Shown: in pieces, positions 1,530-10,897 of the stretch
Layout: every line of letters starts with the position of its first letter
How positions within the stretch are numbered: the first letter of the stretch is position 1
Source: Anaerolineae bacterium
Lineage (GTDB): Bacteria > Chloroflexota > Anaerolineae > UBA4142
DNA length: 32,493 nt
Direction: 5' to 3'
Assembly: GCA_026417715.1 (NCBI GenBank)
Contig: JAOACU010000003.1
Coordinates: 1-32,493, forward strand
The notes under the pieces: generated by a model
Databases searched by the model: none
What the model saw: the letters and a program-made list of their open reading frames with translations, nothing else
What the model was told of the DNA's origin: nothing
Translations under genes and position numbers: made by a program

Positions 1530-3203
1530 ATGAAATCTACGCTTCAGAACATTCCCTTTTTTGCTGGGCTGGACGACCACGTCCTCGAAGCCGTTTCGCG
1601 ACGCTTGAAACGCGAACACTATCACAAAGGCACAGCCGTCTTTTTGGAAGACGAGCCGGGTGATTGTATGTACATCATCGAAAGTGGTCAGATCAAGATT
1701 GTGACCGAACGTGGCAATCAAGAAAAAATTCTCAGTTATCTGGGACCCGGCAATTTCTTCGGCGAGATGGCACTTTTGTTAGGGGAGCGTCGCTCGGCAA
1801 CCGCGCGCGTGGTGATTGACGCCGATTTACTCGTTCTGCGCAAAGACGATTTTGATGAACTGTTGCAAATTCATCCCCAAATCGCGCTCAAGATGTCGCA
1901 AGAGTTGGGTCGCCGCTTGACCCAAACCAGTACCGAGCCGCCCTTGCGCGAGGAATTTAACATTGTGACTGTGCTGGGCATTGCTACCCCTTTGTTAGCG
2001 CGACATCTGGCGCAAGTGACTGGTGAGACTGTCGTCATTCTCGATTTGGGTGGACTCGCCAACGTGACGCTCGATGTCACCGCGCTACGTCAAGCGAATG
2101 TGATATTGTTTCGCGAGGACATTTACAGCCCCGAAAAATTAGCGGATCGCTTGAGTCAGTTAGTCGAACAATACTATTGGGTGCTTCTCTCCACTGCACC
2201 GTACGAGACACCGCTCACGCTCAAAGCCATCGAACTTGCCGATATGACTGTCCACATCGGCGAGAAAGAACCGAATTGGCTCAGAATGGTTGCGCCCAAA
2301 GGTTATTGGCGCGTGGATGCCCAACCGCCGGCGATTCAACGCTTGGCGCGTCGCATCGCTCAACGTCTTGTGGGGCTAGCCCTCTCGTCTGGGAACGCGC
2401 GCGGAATGGCACATATTGGCGTCTTGCGTGTACTCGAAGAAGAAGGCATACCGATAGATATGCTCGCTGGGACAAGTGCGGGCGCGGTCTTTGCCGCGTT
2501 GTATGCCGCCGGTCGCTCGGTGGAAGAGATGACCCAGTTCGCGTTGTATGTGGAAAAGCAGTATAATTTTTTGACAGGATTCAAGTATTGGGATTTTCGT
2601 CTCCCCCCGCGCGCAGGATTGATCAAGGGCGATGTGGTCTTGGACTATTTGCGACGATGGGTGTACGACAAGTCGTTTGACGAATTGAACATCCCGTTGT
2701 ATATTGTAGCCACCGATCTGATTTCGGGTGAAGAGATTATTTTCGATCGCGGTTCGGTTGCCGAAGCCGTGCGCGCGAGTATGAGCGTGATCGGCATCTT
2801 TGAACCGGCACAAGTAGCAGGTCGCTTTTTGATTGATGGCGGTTCGGTCAATCCCGTTCCCACCCAAGTTCTCGCCGATCGTGGCGCCAGCATCATCTTG
2901 GCAAGCAATGTGATTCCCAGTTTGGAGGATCGTATTCATCGGCGCACATTGCGACGCGAAGGCAGATTACCTAGTTTGATGAACATTCTGACTGGCGCCC
3001 TTGAAATTATGGAGAGCGAAATCATCCGCACGCGTTTGGGACCGGTGGACGTGTTGATTCAACCCAACGTCGCACAGTACGGTACGATGGAATACGACAA
3101 AGCCGCTGAAATCATCAAGCGTGGCGAAGAAGCCGCGCGCACACAAATCCCAGCGATTCGGCAACGCTTGGCACCCAAACCGCGCAGACGACTCGCTGCA
3201 TAG
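1530..3203 (+). CDS. Cyclic-nucleotide-binding domain / patatin-like phospholipase fusion protein (NTE/RssA-like), paralog 1
   Basis: The N-terminal CAP_ED-type domain carries the phosphate-binding cassette FFGEMALLLGERRSATA. The patatin motifs are the oxyanion loop ALSSGNARGMAHIGV, the nucleophile elbow GTSAG (nt 2469-2483) and the catalytic Asp in LIDGGSVNPVP. A roughly 120-aa middle domain separates the two. Confidence 0.85.
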   Translation: MKSTLQNIPFFAGLDDHVLEAVSRRLKREHYHKGTAVFLEDEPGDCMYIIESGQIKIVTERGNQEKILSYLGPGNFFGEMALLLGERRSATARVVIDADLLVLRKDDFDELLQIHPQIALKMSQELGRRLTQTSTEPPLREEFNIVTVLGIATPLLARHLAQVTGETVVILDLGGLANVTLDVTALRQANVILFREDIYSPEKLADRLSQLVEQYYWVLLSTAPYETPLTLKAIELADMTVHIGEKEPNWLRMVAPKGYWRVDAQPPAIQRLARRIAQRLVGLALSSGNARGMAHIGVLRVLEEEGIPIDMLAGTSAGAVFAALYAAGRSVEEMTQFALYVEKQYNFLTGFKYWDFRLPPRAGLIKGDVVLDYLRRWVYDKSFDELNIPLYIVATDLISGEEIIFDRGSVAEAVRASMSVIGIFEPAQVAGRFLIDGGSVNPVPTQVLADRGASIILASNVIPSLEDRIHRRTLRREGRLPSLMNILTGALEIMESEIIRTRLGPVDVLIQPNVAQYGTMEYDKAAEIIKRGEEAARTQIPAIRQRLAPKPRRRLAA

Positions 3204-3226
3204 TTGATGCGAGGTCACAAACGGTA

Positions 3227-4894
3227 ATGAAAGAATATCTCCGTACGGTACCCCTGTTCCACACCCTTGACGATGCGGCACTCGAACTGGTCGCCCAACG
3301 CATCGAATACAAACGCGTGAACAAAGGTGCCTCCGTCTTTCTGGCGGGCGAGCCCGGCGATTGTATGTACATCATCAAGAGCGGCATCGTCAAGGTGGTG
3401 TCGTACTACGAAGGCGAAGAACGCTTTATCCTCTACTTGGGTCCTGGCGATTTCTTTGGTGAAGGCGCCGCGCTGTTCGGTGGTCATCACTCGGCGAGTG
3501 TGTTCGTGGTGCTGGATGCGGAACTGTTGCTTCTCTCGCATGATGATGTGACCGCGCTGATGCAACAATTCCCTTCGATGAGTTTGACGATCATTCGTGC
3601 ACTCCACCAGCGTTTGCGCCTCTCCTTGCGCGCGCCTATTCAAACCAAGCAAATCAACATTATCGCTTCCATCGGACTGTCCACGCCATTATTGGCGCAA
3701 TACATTGGCGAAGTCACCGGCGAAGAGGTATTGTTACTCAATCTGGACACGGCGTTTCCTGCTCTGGACCGCGAGGCACTGGCGCGCGCGAATGTGCGCT
3801 GTCAATGTTTAGAACATCCGCTAGACGCCGATGATTTACCGCGCTATTTGAGTCAATTGGTACAACAATACTATTGGGTGATTCTGTGGCTCGAAGCGGA
3901 AGAGCGCCCGCTCTATCGCAAAGCCATCGAATTGGCAGACCTGTGCGTGGTGTTGGGTGTTGTTGAACGCCAAGCGGCAGCGCACTTGATGCCAGAGCCC
4001 TTGTACGCTGATGCCGAGTCTGCAGCCATCTACAAACTGGCGCGCAGGATCGCTCAGCGTCAAGTGGGTTTGGCACTATCAAGTGGCAACGCGCGGGGGA
4101 TGGCGCACATTGGCGTACTCAAAGTATTGCGCGAAGAAAATATTCCGATTGATTTCATCGTCGGCACAAGTGCCGGCGCGCTCTTTGGCGCAATGTACGC
4201 CGCAGGACGTAGCATCGAAGAAATGACCCAGTTCGCGCTTCAGGTGCGTTTGGAGTACAACTTTTTGACGGGCTTTCGCAACTGGGATTTCAGTATCCCA
4301 CCGCGTTGGGGACTCATCAAAGGGAATATGTTTCTCAAGCAACTGCAACGCTTGTTCCCCGACGAAACGTTTGAAGGTTTACAAATACCGTTTGCCGCTG
4401 TTGCCACCGACCTTATCTCTGGTGAAGAGATTATCTTTGAACGCGGTCCCCTCGCCGAAGCCCTGCGCGCGACGATGAGCGTCGGTGGCTTTTTGGAACC
4501 CGCGCGACACGAGGGGCGTTTGCTGATTGATGGTGGCGCGGTCAACCCAGTGCCCGTCCAAGTCTTGACCGCGCGCGGAATGAATATCACGATTGCTTCC
4601 AACGTCATTCCCACCTTGCACGAGCGCGTGCGTTGGAAACGTGGGCAACTCGAAAAAGATCGCGCGACGCTGATTGATATTATGCTGAACGAACGTGAAA
4701 TTATGGAGGGCGAAATCATCCGCTCGCGAATGGCGCCCGTGGATGTCTTGATTCAACCTGACGTGGCACGCTATCACGTGCGGCAGTATGACAAGGCGGC
4801 TGAAATCATTCGCGCAGGTGAAGAAGCCGCGCGTCTGCACATTCCGCAGATTCGCAAACTCCTCGCGCCGCGTCCGCGCAAACCACTCACTTGA
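3227..4894 (+). CDS. Cyclic-nucleotide-binding domain / patatin-like phospholipase fusion protein, paralog 2
   Basis: It is collinear with the upstream gene, with long identical stretches (LARRIAQRxVGLALSSGNARGMAHIGVL, GTSAGA, IEEMTQFAL, ATDLISGEEIIFERG, LIDGGxVNPVP, APVDVLIQP, YDKAAEII). In the cNMP cassette the Arg is replaced, reading FFGEGAALFGGHHSAS. Confidence 0.85.
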   Translation: MKEYLRTVPLFHTLDDAALELVAQRIEYKRVNKGASVFLAGEPGDCMYIIKSGIVKVVSYYEGEERFILYLGPGDFFGEGAALFGGHHSASVFVVLDAELLLLSHDDVTALMQQFPSMSLTIIRALHQRLRLSLRAPIQTKQINIIASIGLSTPLLAQYIGEVTGEEVLLLNLDTAFPALDREALARANVRCQCLEHPLDADDLPRYLSQLVQQYYWVILWLEAEERPLYRKAIELADLCVVLGVVERQAAAHLMPEPLYADAESAAIYKLARRIAQRQVGLALSSGNARGMAHIGVLKVLREENIPIDFIVGTSAGALFGAMYAAGRSIEEMTQFALQVRLEYNFLTGFRNWDFSIPPRWGLIKGNMFLKQLQRLFPDETFEGLQIPFAAVATDLISGEEIIFERGPLAEALRATMSVGGFLEPARHEGRLLIDGGAVNPVPVQVLTARGMNITIASNVIPTLHERVRWKRGQLEKDRATLIDIMLNEREIMEGEIIRSRMAPVDVLIQPDVARYHVRQYDKAAEIIRAGEEAARLHIPQIRKLLAPRPRKPLT

Positions 4895-6168: not shown

Positions 6169-8322
6169 ATGTTATTTACCCCAACGCATTTTCGCCATCT
6201 CCTCGCAGTGGTGTTCGGCTTTTGCCTTCCCCTCTTATGCATTGTTGCAACGCCAACTCAAGCCCAAACCCCCACGCCTATCTTTGTCCCCATCGCACTC
6301 ACACCACTTCAACGCGATACGCCCATCGAACTGACCGCGCTTACGCTCGATGCTGACATTCTCGAAGTGCAAGGACGCACGATTATCAGTGGCACTTCGA
6401 CATTCAAACTGCACAATACCGATCGTCTCAACGATTGGCAAGGCGCGGTGGGTTTTCCAACGTGGGCAGGTGATCCGTATGCCTTCGATCCCGCGCGCCT
6501 CGAATCGTTCAGCGTGAGTGTGGATGGCGTCCGCATCCGAACGTTGACACCCGCGCGCGCAGATTTAAGAATCGGCGCGAGTGTGCGCGCAGTGGATTGG
6601 TACACCTTCACATTGACACTTGAAGGCGATGAAAAGAAAATCGTGCGATACGATTTTCGACAGGACTTGGGCGATGGCGCGTTCGCGCGATTTACCTATG
6701 GACTACTCCCTGCTGCACATTGGAAAGGCAACATTGGCAGTGCGCGCCTCACACTCAATTTTCCCGGCTTTACGACGCTCGAACAAATCATCGCCTACGA
6801 TCCACCCGATCCTGAATTCGATGGCACAAGTCTAACGTGGCGTCACATCAGCAAACTGCCGACCGCGAATCCCACGCTCACTTTTTTGCGTCCGTCCGTT
6901 TGGAATGACCTGCAAGCCAAACGTCGCGACGCGCTGACGAATCCGAATAACGCGAATGCGCGTTTCGCGCTTGGCAATCTCTTGCGCCAACTCGCGCAAC
7001 TCGATTCGCCGCGCCGCGACAGTTTTTACAGCCAAGCCACCGCCGAGTTGGAAACAGCCGTGCGACTCGATCCGAACCATCGTGCCGCGCGCCAAGCCCT
7101 CGCCGCGCTCTACGAAGCGCGCGCCGGCGATGCGACGGGTTCGCGCAATCCCGCGTATGTGCAACTTGCGATCGCGCAATGGGAAAAGTTGATGGACGAT
7201 GCAAACGCGCGCAAGCAACTTGCCGAAGATTATTTTTATCTGGGCTTGGACGCGCACACACGACGCGCGTTTGCCGATGCCGCCGCGTACTACGACAAGG
7301 CACACGCGCTTGCCCCCAACGGCGCAGGTCCCCTTTACACGCCTGAGCGATTGGCAGCCCAGCGCCGCGCGCTGAACGTGGCGTGGGCGAACGCCTTGCT
7401 CGATCAAAACGATTGGGACGCGGCGTTACCTAAGGCGCGCGCGGCACTCGGCGATGCGTTCTTGGCAACGGTAACACCACCCACGTTTCACATCACATCG
7501 GCGCAAGTGAATACCGCCACTGCGACGCGCACGATGCGTTTTACGCTGACGCCACTACGCGTTGCCGAAACACAGAACGATGTGAGTGGTGTGATCGCCG
7601 CGTGGCGCGCTGCTGGCGCCGATGTGAATCTGGCAAGCGATGGTACGAATTTCGTACTCACGTTGACGGTGCCACACCAAACGCCACTACAACTGCGCGA
7701 TGCGATGCGCACACTTGCCGCACTGTTACCTGCGCGCGCCGAGTGGGCACTCGTACGCGCGATTCTCTCACCCAGCGACATTGATTGGCAAGAGACGGAC
7801 GAGTGGCTGACCCACACGATGCAGTATCGCGAAGCCGTAGATTTGTCGTCAGCGTGTCGCGCCTTCACCACGCAACTCGATACGCTCACGCAAAATCTCA
7901 AATCGTTGGAAAACATCTCTGCTGACGACGACGAAGCCCAACTCAAGCGCGCGTTACTGCGCTACGCGCAGCGCGGTTGGCAAGCGACGCTGGCAAGCGG
8001 TCACGCGATTTATCGTGCGGGCGCGCAAGAAGCGCGCGTGGAACCGTGCACCGCCAAGACGCTCAAGTGGTCATCGTCGGTGTGGCGTCCCGTGCGTGTA
8101 GCAATCGTTGTGGGGTTGATCGAACTTGTGGGGATAATCGTTTTGCTGGCGCGTTGGCGCGGACGACGGAGGACGGAAGACGGAGGACGGAGGACGGACA
8201 ACGGAGGATGGAAGACGAATGACGAAAGTAGTCCTTTTGACTTTTTACCGCAAGTCTCTGTCCTCCATCAAATCCCCTTCGCCATATACAACTCACCCAA
8301 CTCGAAACCCAAGCGGCGATAG
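6169..8322 (+). CDS. Hypothetical exported/membrane-anchored protein with central TPR-like repeats and a C-terminal TM anchor
   Basis: The N-terminal signal-like segment is FGFCLPLLCIVATPTQAQ. A beta-rich N-domain is followed by TPR-like helical repeats (ALGNLLRQLAQLD..ELETAVRLDPNHRAARQALAALYEA..YFYLGLDAH..AAAYYDKAHALAPN). The C-terminal TM helix is VRVAIVVGLIELVGIIVLLARW. The last ~55 aa are encoded by a heptamer repeat and by sequence antisense to the Elp3 3' end, so the true C-terminus is uncertain. Confidence 0.6.
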   Translation: MLFTPTHFRHLLAVVFGFCLPLLCIVATPTQAQTPTPIFVPIALTPLQRDTPIELTALTLDADILEVQGRTIISGTSTFKLHNTDRLNDWQGAVGFPTWAGDPYAFDPARLESFSVSVDGVRIRTLTPARADLRIGASVRAVDWYTFTLTLEGDEKKIVRYDFRQDLGDGAFARFTYGLLPAAHWKGNIGSARLTLNFPGFTTLEQIIAYDPPDPEFDGTSLTWRHISKLPTANPTLTFLRPSVWNDLQAKRRDALTNPNNANARFALGNLLRQLAQLDSPRRDSFYSQATAELETAVRLDPNHRAARQALAALYEARAGDATGSRNPAYVQLAIAQWEKLMDDANARKQLAEDYFYLGLDAHTRRAFADAAAYYDKAHALAPNGAGPLYTPERLAAQRRALNVAWANALLDQNDWDAALPKARAALGDAFLATVTPPTFHITSAQVNTATATRTMRFTLTPLRVAETQNDVSGVIAAWRAAGADVNLASDGTNFVLTLTVPHQTPLQLRDAMRTLAALLPARAEWALVRAILSPSDIDWQETDEWLTHTMQYREAVDLSSACRAFTTQLDTLTQNLKSLENISADDDEAQLKRALLRYAQRGWQATLASGHAIYRAGAQEARVEPCTAKTLKWSSSVWRPVRVAIVVGLIELVGIIVLLARWRGRRRTEDGGRRTDNGGWKTNDESSPFDFLPQVSVLHQIPFAIYNSPNSKPKRR
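8161..8223. repeat. Heptamer tandem array GGARGAC x9 (family F)
   Basis: The array reads ggacgac ggaggac ggaagac ggaggac ggaggac ggacaac ggaggat ggaagac gaatgac with an exact 7-bp period. A partial inverted word, gtcctcc, lies at about 8261. The array sits at the convergent junction of two genes and translates as RRTEDGGRRTDNGGWKTNDE in the upstream ORF. Confidence 0.8.
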
Positions 8323-9911
8323 TACTCGCGCGTGCCAATCGCCGCGATGACGGCAAGACGTTTGAATCCGTTCGCGCGCGCGATTTGTGTCGCGTGTTCA
8401 ATCAATTCCGCACCCAAGCCCGCGTGTTGTGCCTCGCCCGTACTCTCCGCGCCGATTTCGAGGGCGCGCCCGTACACGTGCACCTCACGAATCATCGCAC
8501 AGTCGCGCACTTCGTCCAAGATGTCTTCGCACGGCGCATCGGGTAAGGGCAACGATAAACGCAGAAACGCGGCAAGCCGATGACGCGGCGTGACGAAACT
8601 CAAAAAGTGTTCGGTGGTCACATCGGTTGGGTACGTGAGCACATCGAGGCGCAATTCTGCGCGCGTGATTTTTTCGTTACGAATTTCGCGACAACGAATG
8701 CATTGGCACGCCAGTCCACGCGCGCGCATTTCGCGTTGCACCACCAGTCGCAAATCGGAAGTGGTGTTGCCCGCGACGATGTAACTCGCGGGAATGTCGC
8801 GCACGACGCGATTGATGCGACAGTACGGTGGCACCATCGCTTTGCACGCGATCAACAATTCAATGAGTTCGGCTTCGGTGTAGGGTTGATATTCGCCGTT
8901 CTGCCAGCGCGCATACAACTCGGTACCTTCGAGCAAACTGCACGGGTAGATTTTGAGTTCGTCGGGACGCAGTGCAGGATCGCCCCACAAGCGCGCAAAA
9001 TCCGCGCGATCCGATTCGAGTGTCGCGCCGAGCAGATTCGGCATCCAATGCAAATGCAGTTTGAAACCGGCGAGTCGCAACAAGCGCATTGCGCGACGCG
9101 TGTCCGCAACGGTGTGTCCGCGCTTGTTCGCCGCGAGAATTTCATCGTCGAGTGATTGCGCGCCCATCTGCACTTTGGTTGCGCCGAGCGCGCGCAAACG
9201 ACGCACCTCGTCGAGTGTGACGTAATCGGGACGTGTCTCCATCACCATCCCAACGTTGCGATGCGCGGCGGTCTCGTTGAGACGTTGCGCTTCCGCTAAC
9301 GATGACGAATCGCGTTCGTTCATCGCATCGAGGCATCGTTGCACAAACCACTCTTGATACGCGCGCGGATACACCGACCACGTGCCCCCCAAAATCAGCA
9401 ATTCGATTTTATCCGTGCTGTGTCCCATCGTTTCGAGCGTACGAATACGTGCAAACGTTTGCGCGTACGGATCGAAACGATGCTCTTCCGCGCGTTGCGC
9501 GCCCGGTTCAAGTGGCAGGTAACTTTTCGGAAAACCTTCGGCTTCGGGGCAAAAGATGCATTTGCCCGGACACGGATACGGTCCCGTCATCACTGCCACT
9601 GGCGTCACACCCGAAAGCGTACGAATCGGTTTGAGTTGCAAACGTTCGAGAAGCGCGCGCTCGAACGGAATGACACCGCGCGCAACAAGTTGCCGATACG
9701 CGTCCACGATGCGTTCTTTGGGCACAGGACGATCGCCCGCGTGGATGTAACGTGTGATCAACTGATTCAGTTTTTGGCGCGTCCACTCTTCTTCCGCGCG
9801 CACTGCATCGAAGAGAGCCAAAAGCGCGTCACGTTGCACGTCCACATCGAGCGGGACATTGCGCTTGGCTTGCCATTCGCGGCGCGCGCGTTCACGTTCT
9901 TCAAAATTCAT
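8268..9911 (-). CDS. elp3: Elp3-family radical SAM / GNAT acetyltransferase (tRNA U34 carboxymethyl-type modification enzyme homolog)
   Basis: The radical-SAM cluster motif is PCPGKCIFCP (CX3CX2C), preceded by KPIRTLSGVTPVAVMT. The C-terminal GNAT/KAT block is REVHVYG..GEAQHAGLGAELIEHATQIARANGFKRLAVIAAIGTREYYRRLGFELGELYMAK. I prefer ATG 9911 as the start; the ORF-track start at 9953 is a TTG that overlaps the divergent gene. Confidence 0.9.
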   Translation of the reverse strand: MNFEERERARREWQAKRNVPLDVDVQRDALLALFDAVRAEEEWTRQKLNQLITRYIHAGDRPVPKERIVDAYRQLVARGVIPFERALLERLQLKPIRTLSGVTPVAVMTGPYPCPGKCIFCPEAEGFPKSYLPLEPGAQRAEEHRFDPYAQTFARIRTLETMGHSTDKIELLILGGTWSVYPRAYQEWFVQRCLDAMNERDSSSLAEAQRLNETAAHRNVGMVMETRPDYVTLDEVRRLRALGATKVQMGAQSLDDEILAANKRGHTVADTRRAMRLLRLAGFKLHLHWMPNLLGATLESDRADFARLWGDPALRPDELKIYPCSLLEGTELYARWQNGEYQPYTEAELIELLIACKAMVPPYCRINRVVRDIPASYIVAGNTTSDLRLVVQREMRARGLACQCIRCREIRNEKITRAELRLDVLTYPTDVTTEHFLSFVTPRHRLAAFLRLSLPLPDAPCEDILDEVRDCAMIREVHVYGRALEIGAESTGEAQHAGLGAELIEHATQIARANGFKRLAVIAAIGTREYYRRLGFELGELYMAKGI

Positions 9912-9919
9912 GGTATAAT
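9891..9919 (+). promoter_or_regulatory. Candidate sigma70-type promoter (TTCACG-17-TGgTATAAT) for the methyltransferase gene, possibly giving a leaderless or near-leaderless mRNA
   Basis: The -35-like TTCACG is at 9891-9896. After a 17-nt spacer, an extended -10 TGGTATAAT is at 9911-9919. The ATG at 9930 is only 10 nt downstream of the -10, and no Shine-Dalgarno sequence lies between them. Confidence 0.35.
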
Positions 9920-9929
9920 CATCAACCCG

Positions 9930-10649
9930 ATGGATGAGCAAATCGTCAGACAATTGATTGACATCAACAAAAAATTTTATTCCGAGTTTGCGTCCGCGTT
10001 TTCGGAGACACGCTCTAGCGCGCAGACGCGACTCGACCGAATTGTAGCGTACATCGGCGATGCTGGCAAGATTCTCGATGTCGGTTGCGGCAATGGACGA
10101 CTTGCCGAACGTTTGGATCGCGAAGGCAAACGCGCGCGCTATGTGGGTGTGGATGCTTCACCGCAGATGATTACGATTGCACGCGCGCGTCAGATGCGTT
10201 TGCATCACCTCACTGCCGATTTTTTCGTTGCCGACATCACGCAACCGCATTGGAGCGCGCCGATTGCGCACGAAACGTTCGATATTGCGATTGCCCTCGC
10301 CGTGTTGCACCACATTCCCAGTTTCGATTTGCGCGCGCGCGTTTTGCACGATTTGCGCGCGCTCCTTGCGCCCGGCGCGCGTTTGGTGTTGACCAACTGG
10401 GCATTCGATCGCAACGAGCGACAACGCAAACGCATCGTCGCGTGGTCGCACGTCGGCGTGGATGAACGCGCGCTCGAACCCGGCGATGCGCTCCTCGTGT
10501 GGCAACGCGGTGGGGTGGGCTATCGGTATTGTCATTTGATTACACCCGATGAAATGCAACGCCTTGCGGAGCACAGCGGTTTCCAAGTCGTCAAGCAATA
10601 CTATGCCGATGCGGATTTGAATTTGTATAGTGTATTGCGTAGTGCGTAG
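9930..10649 (+). CDS. Class I SAM-dependent methyltransferase, Trm9/ALKBH8-MT-like
   Basis: The SAM motif I is ILDVGCGNGRL. The N-terminal FYSEFASAFSETR resembles the Trm9 block ..IAPHFSxTR. FDIAIALAVLHHIPSFDLRARVLHDLRALLAPGARLVLTNWAF resembles Trm9 FDFAISIAVVHH..R..v...l.r.LrpGG..li..WA. YRYCHLITPDEMQRL resembles the Trm9 RYYHlf.eGEL block. The ORF-track start at 9339 is antisense to elp3 and is rejected. Confidence 0.75.
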   Translation: MDEQIVRQLIDINKKFYSEFASAFSETRSSAQTRLDRIVAYIGDAGKILDVGCGNGRLAERLDREGKRARYVGVDASPQMITIARARQMRLHHLTADFFVADITQPHWSAPIAHETFDIAIALAVLHHIPSFDLRARVLHDLRALLAPGARLVLTNWAFDRNERQRKRIVAWSHVGVDERALEPGDALLVWQRGGVGYRYCHLITPDEMQRLAEHSGFQVVKQYYADADLNLYSVLRSA

Positions 10650-10772: not shown

Positions 10773-10787
10773 CATTGTTGAAAATTG

Positions 10788-10886
<99 letters not shown>

Positions 10887-10897
10887 TTAAAATCCTT

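Follow-up and report, generated by a model that had tools for sequence, protein, structure and literature searches.

Can a bacterium modify the wobble uridine (U34) of its transfer RNA (tRNA) in two steps, in the manner of archaea and eukaryotes? The question is raised by a stretch of 32,493 nucleotides from a hot-spring Anaerolineae bacterium (GenBank assembly GCA_026417715.1, contig JAOACU010000003.1; hereafter the window, by which we mean the whole stretch of DNA that was analysed), in which a gene for the radical S-adenosylmethionine (SAM) enzyme Elp3 stands head-to-head with a gene for a class I SAM-dependent methyltransferase. We consider it probable (roughly 0.7) that these two genes form a conserved, divergently arranged module for tRNA wobble-uridine modification of the archaeal and eukaryotic type, in which Elp3 would generate 5-carboxymethyluridine (cm5U34) and the methyltransferase would convert it to 5-methoxycarbonylmethyluridine (mcm5U34), the modification itself being predicted from sequence.

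The presence of Elp3 is already annotated in the databases; the new part is its pairing with a bacterial Trm9, which represents a bacterial case of a known two-enzyme pathway. According to reviews of Elongator, bacterial Elp3 is confined to Dehalococcoides, and xcm5U (cm5U and its derivatives) has not been directly demonstrated in bacteria, the organisms in question being hard to grow (PMC7663514), and a 2026 paper states that 'numerous bacteria' possess Elp3 (PMC13315578). In our literature search, no paper was found that links Elp3 to Anaerolineae or describes a bacterial Trm9 partner.

Identity of the two encoded proteins

The elp3 gene (8268..9911, minus strand) encodes a stand-alone Elp3 of 547 aa that comprises a radical-SAM domain and a GNAT-type lysine acetyltransferase (KAT) domain and is predicted to be a tRNA U34 carboxymethyl synthase, while the methyltransferase gene (9930..10649, plus strand) encodes a Trm9-family protein of 239 aa, predicted to be a tRNA (carboxymethyluridine34-5-O)-methyltransferase. 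Direct reading of the sequence gives a spacer of 18 nt (9912..9929) between the divergent ATG codons, and similarly short spacers, of 4-30 nt, are found in many orthologous loci. A first-pass annotation of the window had described the same positions and the same distance, and all the motifs that it had quoted are present: in Elp3, the radical-SAM cluster C114-x3-C118-x2-C121 and the KAT segments Q495-H-A-G-L-G500, G526-TREYYRRLGF-536 and Y542-M-A-K545; in the methyltransferase, FSETR (residues 24-28), FDIAIALAVLHH (117-128), LVLTNWAF (152-159) and YRYCHL (198-203). We place the start of elp3 at the ATG at 9911 and its stop at 8268; a longer product initiated from a TTG at 9953 is possible, and the ATG is favoured because the orthologues start at the methionine of an MNxxERERARR sequence. 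The start of the methyltransferase at 9930 is supported by an N-terminus, M-D/N-x-Q-[LIV]-V-K-Q-L, that is common to 22 homologues.

That 8268-9911(-) encodes a genuine full-length Elp3, as the first-pass annotation had proposed, is confirmed by comparison with families and structures. The protein scores 510.9 bits against the NCBIfam model TIGR01211 (ELP3), for which the cut-off is 350, its residues 85-546 covering positions 49-521 of the 522 in the model, and the motifs of both catalytic halves are intact. Pfam recognizes the domains Radical_SAM, Radical_SAM_C and GNAT, the last of them over residues 493-537. The structures of Elp3 from Methanocaldococcus infernus (MinElp3; residues 85-545, E 1.5e-119) and from Dehalococcoides mccartyi (DmcElp3; residues 95-545, E 6e-115) are aligned with no large gaps, and the Elp3 structures of mouse, human and yeast Elongator are matched with E between 1e-84 and 1e-90, the yeast alignment extending over residues 44-546. 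The [4Fe-4S] cysteines C114, C118 and C121, which align with the segment CP.GKCI(F/Y)CP of MinElp3 and DmcElp3, are invariant in all 74 orthologues, and so are Q495, H496, G498 and G500 of the acetyl-CoA motif together with Y530 and Y531. Also present is the Zn-binding cysteine triad of the linker (C402/C404/C407), which characterises the Elp3 proteins of bacteria and archaea (PMC6367351) and is kept in 70 of the 74 orthologues; the other four (from L025-L027 and one more of the related loci, for which L numbers are used here) have exchanged all three cysteines jointly (C402S, C404D and C407W).

Compared with DmcElp3, the window protein is longer by about 94 residues at its N-terminus. Extensions of 73-112 residues (mostly about 90-100) are found in all 74 orthologues, with poorly conserved and weakly basic sequences (net charge +3 in the window protein). 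In the archaeal MinElp3 the extended N-terminus is important for tRNA binding, and its absence from DmcElp3 may account for the weak activity of that enzyme (PMC6367351; for the latter also PMC7663514). As to public annotation, the Elp3 proteins are named correctly by NCBI and called 'elongator complex protein 3' by JGI. The curated NCBI name, 'tRNA uridine(34) 5-carboxymethylaminomethyl modification radical SAM/GNAT enzyme Elp3', fits 5-carboxymethylaminomethyluridine (cmnm5U), the product of MnmE and MnmG, and not the carboxymethyl group (cm5U) that has been reported for Elp3.

Judged by profile comparisons, the product of 9930-10649 is a member of the Trm9 family and not a UbiE/UbiG-like enzyme. 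For the METHYLTRANSFERASE Pfam and NCBIfam yield a generic class I fold only. Its best NCBIfam matches (CpaM, UbiG, BchM and UbiE) lie far under the respective cut-offs and are restricted to residues 45-156; a quinone methyltransferase of the UbiE/UbiG type was rejected on these grounds, as UbiG (TIGR01983) reaches 48.3 bits where 103 are required and UbiE 39 where 216 are required, with a match to residues 45-155 of the Rossmann core only. The top match of a phmmer search of PDB sequences is Trm9 of Yarrowia lipolytica (5cm2_Z, E 1.4e-8), and this is the sole match whose alignment reaches the C-terminal lid (YRYCHL in the window protein, YRYYHL in Trm9). When a profile of 22 methyltransferase sequences (A1) was compared with the PDB, Trm9 was found in second place, with 48 bits over residues 42-224, the crystal construct being devoid of the first 38 residues of Trm9.

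For profile-profile comparisons we used Trm9 of Saccharomyces cerevisiae (ScTrm9), both as a single sequence and as a profile of 16 named yeast orthologues (A3). The query was checked by a protein search, which returned 'Trm9p [Saccharomyces cerevisiae]' with 100% identity and coverage, and it agrees with PMC4678810 at each of the 16 residues for which that paper gives a number. With hhalign, A1 was aligned to the single ScTrm9 sequence at 98.6% (E 1.3e-15, 195 columns) and to A3 at 99.4% (E 1.3e-21, 213 columns), residues 14-239 corresponding to Trm9 15-279, whereas the control, UbiG of E. coli (its sequence validated against 4kdc), was aligned at 97.7% (E 2e-12, 103 columns) over the Rossmann core only. 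In the reciprocal direction, the hidden Markov model (HMM) of yeast Trm9 was run against 11,930 six-frame open reading frames (ORFs) with a minimum length of 50 aa, drawn from 80 related loci and the window itself. Its matches were the window protein, at 50 bits (E 1.5e-13), and 67 of the 70 methyltransferases adjacent to Elp3, and nothing else; none of the other methyltransferases encoded within those related loci was among them. The likeness to Trm9 that the first-pass annotation had read from short blocks is therefore borne out along the full length of the protein.

These comparisons bear on the possibility that Elp3 acts alone, yielding cm5U or 5-carbamoylmethyluridine (ncm5U), and that its neighbour is an unrelated, UbiE/UbiG-like enzyme acting on a small molecule or a protein and sharing with elp3 a bidirectional promoter region. 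Matches in Pfam and NCBIfam that are either generic for class I or sub-threshold (UbiG, CpaM, BchM) would agree with such an arrangement, as would the failure of Foldseek to discriminate between families and the name 'benzoquinol methylase' that JGI has given to some homologues (others are called TRM9 or SAM-dependent methyltransferase there, inconsistently, and NCBI uses 'class I SAM-dependent methyltransferase'). We regard it as quite improbable, as the matches in question are confined to the Rossmann core (45-156), whereas the alignment with Trm9 spans the entire protein and includes the active-site residues, as the Trm9 HMM passes over the other methyltransferases of the same loci, and as the pairing with elp3 outlasts unrelated insertions and a complete turnover of the flanking genes.

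The methyltransferase family is large, comprising 877 clusters at 50% identity (E < 1e-30), and its members differ in their additional domains. Some have N-terminal extensions of about 70 residues that have no match in Pfam and are not Trm112. Some are fused to a C-terminal GNAT domain (429 aa; e.g. L087:5001-6290) and still lie divergently beside Elp3. Two members are interrupted in frame, between methyltransferase motifs, by an endonuclease domain of the DUF559/Vsr-like kind, and are named 'very-short-patch-repair endonuclease/SAM-dependent methyltransferase' by JGI.

Conservation of the pair in Chloroflexota

When prokaryotic genomes, one for each species, were scanned with the Elp3 alignment, by two peptide patterns only, 259 of them were found to encode an Elp3 relative, and the linkage counts given here cover the best 80 of them. 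All of these 80 belong to Chloroflexota; most are labelled Anaerolineae, Anaerolineales or Caldilineales/Caldilineaceae, and there are single Thermoflexales, Ktedonobacterales and Chloroflexia labels. By tblastn and hmmsearch, the methyltransferase was located upstream of Elp3 in 71 of the 80 species and was divergent in every case, with a median start-to-start distance of 88 nt and with no more than 200 nt in 51 loci. Nine loci are devoid of an upstream methyltransferase, and in four of these there are fewer than 900 nt of upstream sequence.

The same picture is obtained from the side of the methyltransferase. Seven look-ups were made, four with proteins 58-77% identical to that of the window and three with more remote members of the family, including one fusion of methyltransferase and GNAT, and all seven adjoin a divergent Elp3 gene, while the remaining neighbours vary. 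Since the divergent layout recurs in 71 of 80 species and in seven look-ups of seven, the pairing is not due to chance, and the association that the first-pass annotation had drawn from a single locus holds across species. Furthermore, the two proteins co-vary in their identity to their counterparts in the window (Spearman 0.83, n=67), which is the expectation under co-inheritance. In the loci with wider gaps, the inserted genes are mutually unrelated and the flanking genes have been fully turned over, and the pair is kept.

As the inserts are heterogeneous, a conserved third partner encoded beside or between the two genes (Trm112 or a thiolating enzyme, for instance) was rejected. A jackhmmer search with E. 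coli YcaR as the query revealed no Trm112-like ORF in the window and 87 loci (1.14 Mb). This bears only in part on the suggestion of the first-pass annotation that the pathway operates without Trm112, as it concerns genes linked to the pair, and a Trm112 gene may lie elsewhere in the genome.

The region between elp3 and the methyltransferase gene has repeatedly gained small genes of mobile type (L019, L026-L028, L075, L078-L079, L084 and L086). By reading of the ORFs, the inserts or neighbours include toxin-antitoxin genes of the DUF4160 or PIN-like kind, a HEPN/nucleotidyltransferase pair, Uma2, a beta-carbonic anhydrase and EamA, of which Uma2 and DUF4160 only are supported by Pfam.

Active-site residues and the predicted modification

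Alanine mutants of eight residues of ScTrm9 (R29, D72, H116, W145, W168, R241, Y243 and N271) abolish its function in vivo, and in the mode of binding that has been proposed the carboxylate of cm5U is placed by R29, H116 and R241, the uracil is recognised through N271, and the tryptophans engage in stacking with bases (Letoquart et al., PMC4678810). According to the hhalign mapping, seven of the eight have identical counterparts in the window methyltransferase. Their conservation was analysed in 64 full-length orthologues adjacent to Elp3, which are 34-83% identical to the window protein and in which 21 of the 239 positions are invariant, including Y17, R28, D75, H128, W157 and R199.

R29 corresponds to R28, located in the FSETR motif, and Y18 to Y17, the spacing from the tyrosine to the arginine being 11 in both proteins; F16, Y17, F24 and R28 are all invariant (64/64). 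The same degree of conservation (64/64) is exhibited by the counterparts of D72 (D75), W145 (W157) and R241 (R199), the last of which is followed by Y200, corresponding to Y242, with Tyr in 57 orthologues and Phe in 7. The histidines H115 and H116 are represented by H127 (58/64) and H128 (64/64), and N271, in the profile-profile alignment, by N231 (58/64). W168 is mapped by hhalign to W172 (62/64), an equivalence that is the least certain of all, because phmmer against Yarrowia Trm9 aligns the second tryptophan elsewhere. The SAM-binding GxGxG motif, generic to class I methyltransferases, is found as G52-C-G54-N-G56, with G52 and G54 conserved in 64/64 and G56 in 63/64 orthologues.

Because homology, the conservation of catalytic residues and the tight co-inheritance of the two genes in the Anaerolineae, Caldilineales and Thermoflexales lineages of Chloroflexota point in the same direction, we favour a model in which the end product is mcm5U34. 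In the first step, the radical domain of Elp3, with its [4Fe-4S] cluster and SAM, and acetyl-CoA bound by the KAT domain would be used to put a carboxymethyl group on C5 of U34, giving cm5U34, as orthology to characterised Elp3 enzymes suggests. In the second step, the methyltransferase and SAM would esterify the carboxylate of the cm5 group to yield mcm5U34, or its 2-thiolated form mcm5s2U34 where the tRNA is also thiolated, as may be expected from membership in the Trm9 family and from the active-site residues. In this picture the carboxylate would be bound by R28, H128 and R199, recognition of the uracil would fall to N231, and W157 and W172 would provide stacking on bases. The two-step, Elongator-type pathway that the first-pass annotation had suggested is thus supported by the full-length profile match to Trm9 and by the co-occurrence with Elp3, while the chemistry has the status of a prediction.

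Several observations weigh against this model. The first match of the A1 profile in the PDB is not Trm9 but 3sm3, a methyltransferase from Methanosarcina whose function is unknown, with 52 bits over the core only (38-160). The AlphaFold2 model of the window methyltransferase has a mean predicted local distance difference test (pLDDT) value of 92.1, and Foldseek against the PDB ranks Trm9 20th (target-normalised TM-score 0.71) among near-equal class I methyltransferases; as Foldseek cannot separate Trm9 from dozens of class I enzymes, we take the fold comparison to be uninformative for the assignment to a family. Five related loci (L042, L045, L052, L082 and L084) have ample sequence upstream of elp3 and no adjacent copy of the methyltransferase, so that Elp3 can occur without an adjacent partner; in L084 a gene for a Uma2 endonuclease lies upstream of elp3 in place of the methyltransferase. 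Direct evidence for cm5U or mcm5U in bacteria is nil, and DmcElp3, the sole bacterial Elp3 that has been assayed in vitro, was found to be very weakly active (both PMC7663514). Trm9 of eukaryotes and of Haloferax requires Trm112, yet none is linked to the pair in the 1.14 Mb. Finally, Y243 of ScTrm9, whose alanine mutant has about 10% activity, is replaced by C201 in the window protein, and among the 64 orthologues this position is occupied by Cys in 31, Val in 30, Ala in 2, Leu in 1 and Tyr in none.

The replacement of Y243 could also be understood if the methyltransferase were tied to Elp3 and acted on another atom or made another product, for example if its substrate were another derivative of what Elp3 makes, an adjacent nucleotide in the tRNAs concerned, or the Elp3 protein, in which case the end product would not be mcm5U. 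Certain residues that are invariant in the family (W191, D186, P130 and R135) have no counterpart among the mutated residues of Trm9, and the identity to yeast Trm9 is a mere 28-30% or thereabouts, both of which would be in keeping with such a divergence of function. However, the conserved residues are exactly those proposed to contact the carboxylate (R29, H116 and R241) and the uracil (N271) in ScTrm9, and we hold a different target to be unlikely.

The very weak activity of DmcElp3 in vitro and the loss of the adjacent methyltransferase from five loci would also be expected if the module were a non-functional or near-silent relic of a horizontal transfer from archaea. To this we attach very little credence: both ORFs are intact, and the catalytic residues are invariant over 64-74 species, down to identities of 34% for the methyltransferase and 54% for Elp3, which indicates purifying selection.

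The mcm5U34 model can be taken further. Anaerolineae and their relatives in Chloroflexota may decode split codon boxes with mcm5(s2)U34 by means of a self-sufficient, N-terminally extended Elp3 and a compact, Trm112-independent Trm9, instead of MnmE/MnmG; we put this forward tentatively, as a rather doubtful extension. If it is true that a self-sufficient module replaces MnmE/MnmG, a complete Elongator-type wobble pathway would be known from bacteria for the first time.

Whatever its further extent, the pair predicts a tRNA modification that has never been demonstrated in bacteria. The 259 species genomes with Elp3 relatives stand against the Dehalococcoides-only picture of the reviews, and in the closest 80 Elp3 is nearly always paired with a Trm9-family enzyme. 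The classes that carry the pair include cultivable species, some of them aerobic thermophiles. If a cultured species carries the pair, the question of bacterial mcm5U can be answered by standard mass spectrometry of tRNA; a cultured carrier was sought with the Elp3 of a Caldilinea metagenome-assembled genome (MAG), and each of the best 120 named matches came from a MAG or a metagenome. The pair is, moreover, a compact system in which the need of Trm9 for Trm112 can be examined, and it should be useful for studying how tRNA is bound by a stand-alone Elp3 with its natural N-terminal extension.

Surroundings of the pair and comparison with known systems

With a spacer of 18 nt, the promoters of both genes must sit inside the respective partner gene. 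A consensus scan revealed a promoter-like site for the methyltransferase, TTCACG-17-TATAAT with a TG extension (9891..9919, plus strand; 10/12 matches), within the 5' end of elp3; its extended -10 element, TGGTATAAT at 9911-9919, is a pattern match only. Judged from the spacing, as the scan gives no start site, this candidate implies an mRNA that starts a few bases 5' of the methyltransferase ATG and would thus be leaderless or nearly so. The same scan yielded a candidate for elp3, TTGCCA-17-TACAAT (10041..10069, minus strand; 10/12 matches), within the coding region of the methyltransferase. At 10787-10897 (plus strand), 138 nt past the methyltransferase stop, there is a thiamine pyrophosphate (TPP) riboswitch (RF00059, 77.1 bits), which heads a thiamine-salvage operon composed of a permease of the cytosine/purine family, ThiM, ThiW, an energy-coupling factor (ECF) ATPase, EcfT, ThiE and ThiD; with this operon directly downstream, the methyltransferase gene would form a transcription unit of its own. 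Among the sequencing runs listed as holding the locus there is no RNA-seq: the 16 runs are metagenomic throughout, and hot springs are the source of 15.

The 3' end of elp3 overlaps, in convergent orientation and by 55 nt (8268-8322), with an ORF of 717 aa (6169-8322, plus strand), which is membrane/TPR-like (tetratricopeptide repeat), has no match in Pfam and ends in a low-complexity repeat (RRTEDGGRRTDNGG...). The remaining genes of the window are unrelated to translation and include those for Fpg, two patatin paralogues, a GAF histidine kinase, the thiamine-salvage operon and a polysaccharide synthase cluster, and no tRNA gene is found in the window. The patatin paralogues (1530-4894, plus strand) are arranged in tandem, each of about 555 aa with a cyclic nucleotide monophosphate (cNMP)-binding domain fused to a patatin phospholipase.

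Among known systems, bacterial MnmE/MnmG (cmnm5U34 or 5-aminomethyluridine, nm5U34) has the same role as the one predicted here, the introduction of an xm5 substituent on the wobble U34, but the enzymes are unrelated and the chemistry is different, based on a GTPase, flavin adenine dinucleotide (FAD) and folate with glycine, and not on radical SAM with acetyl-CoA as in Elp3. DmcElp3 of D. mccartyi (PDB 5L7J and 6IA6) is likewise an Elp3 from Chloroflexota, which aligns with the window protein at 95-545 and shares the Zn-binding cysteine triad, but is devoid of the N-terminal extension of about 94 residues.

The eukaryotic system of Elongator and Trm9-Trm112 (ALKBH8-TRMT112) is built on the same two catalytic families as the window pair, in which the radical-SAM and KAT motifs of Elp3 are intact and the Trm9 signature (Y..FSxTR, HH, W, W, RY and N) is kept by the methyltransferase. 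On the other hand, the Elongator subunits Elp1, Elp2 and Elp4-6 are absent from prokaryotes (PMC7663514), the window methyltransferase lacks the long low-complexity insert found in yeast Trm9, and Y243 is Cys or Val. Unlike the eukaryotic genes, bacterial elp3 and its methyltransferase neighbour constitute one divergent unit, with no Trm112 gene linked to it.

In archaea, clustering of the Elp3 and Trm9 genes was reported in 2008 for Sulfolobus solfataricus (PMC2584109), and in 2018 Trm9 of Haloferax volcanii (HVO_1032), together with Trm112, was reported to make mcm5U (PMC6144793). The archaeal systems thus also comprise a stand-alone Elp3 and clustered genes (PMC2584109, PMC6144793), archaeal Trm9 being likened here to the window protein from its published description only; the window pair differs from them in its host, which is a bacterium of the Anaerolineae.

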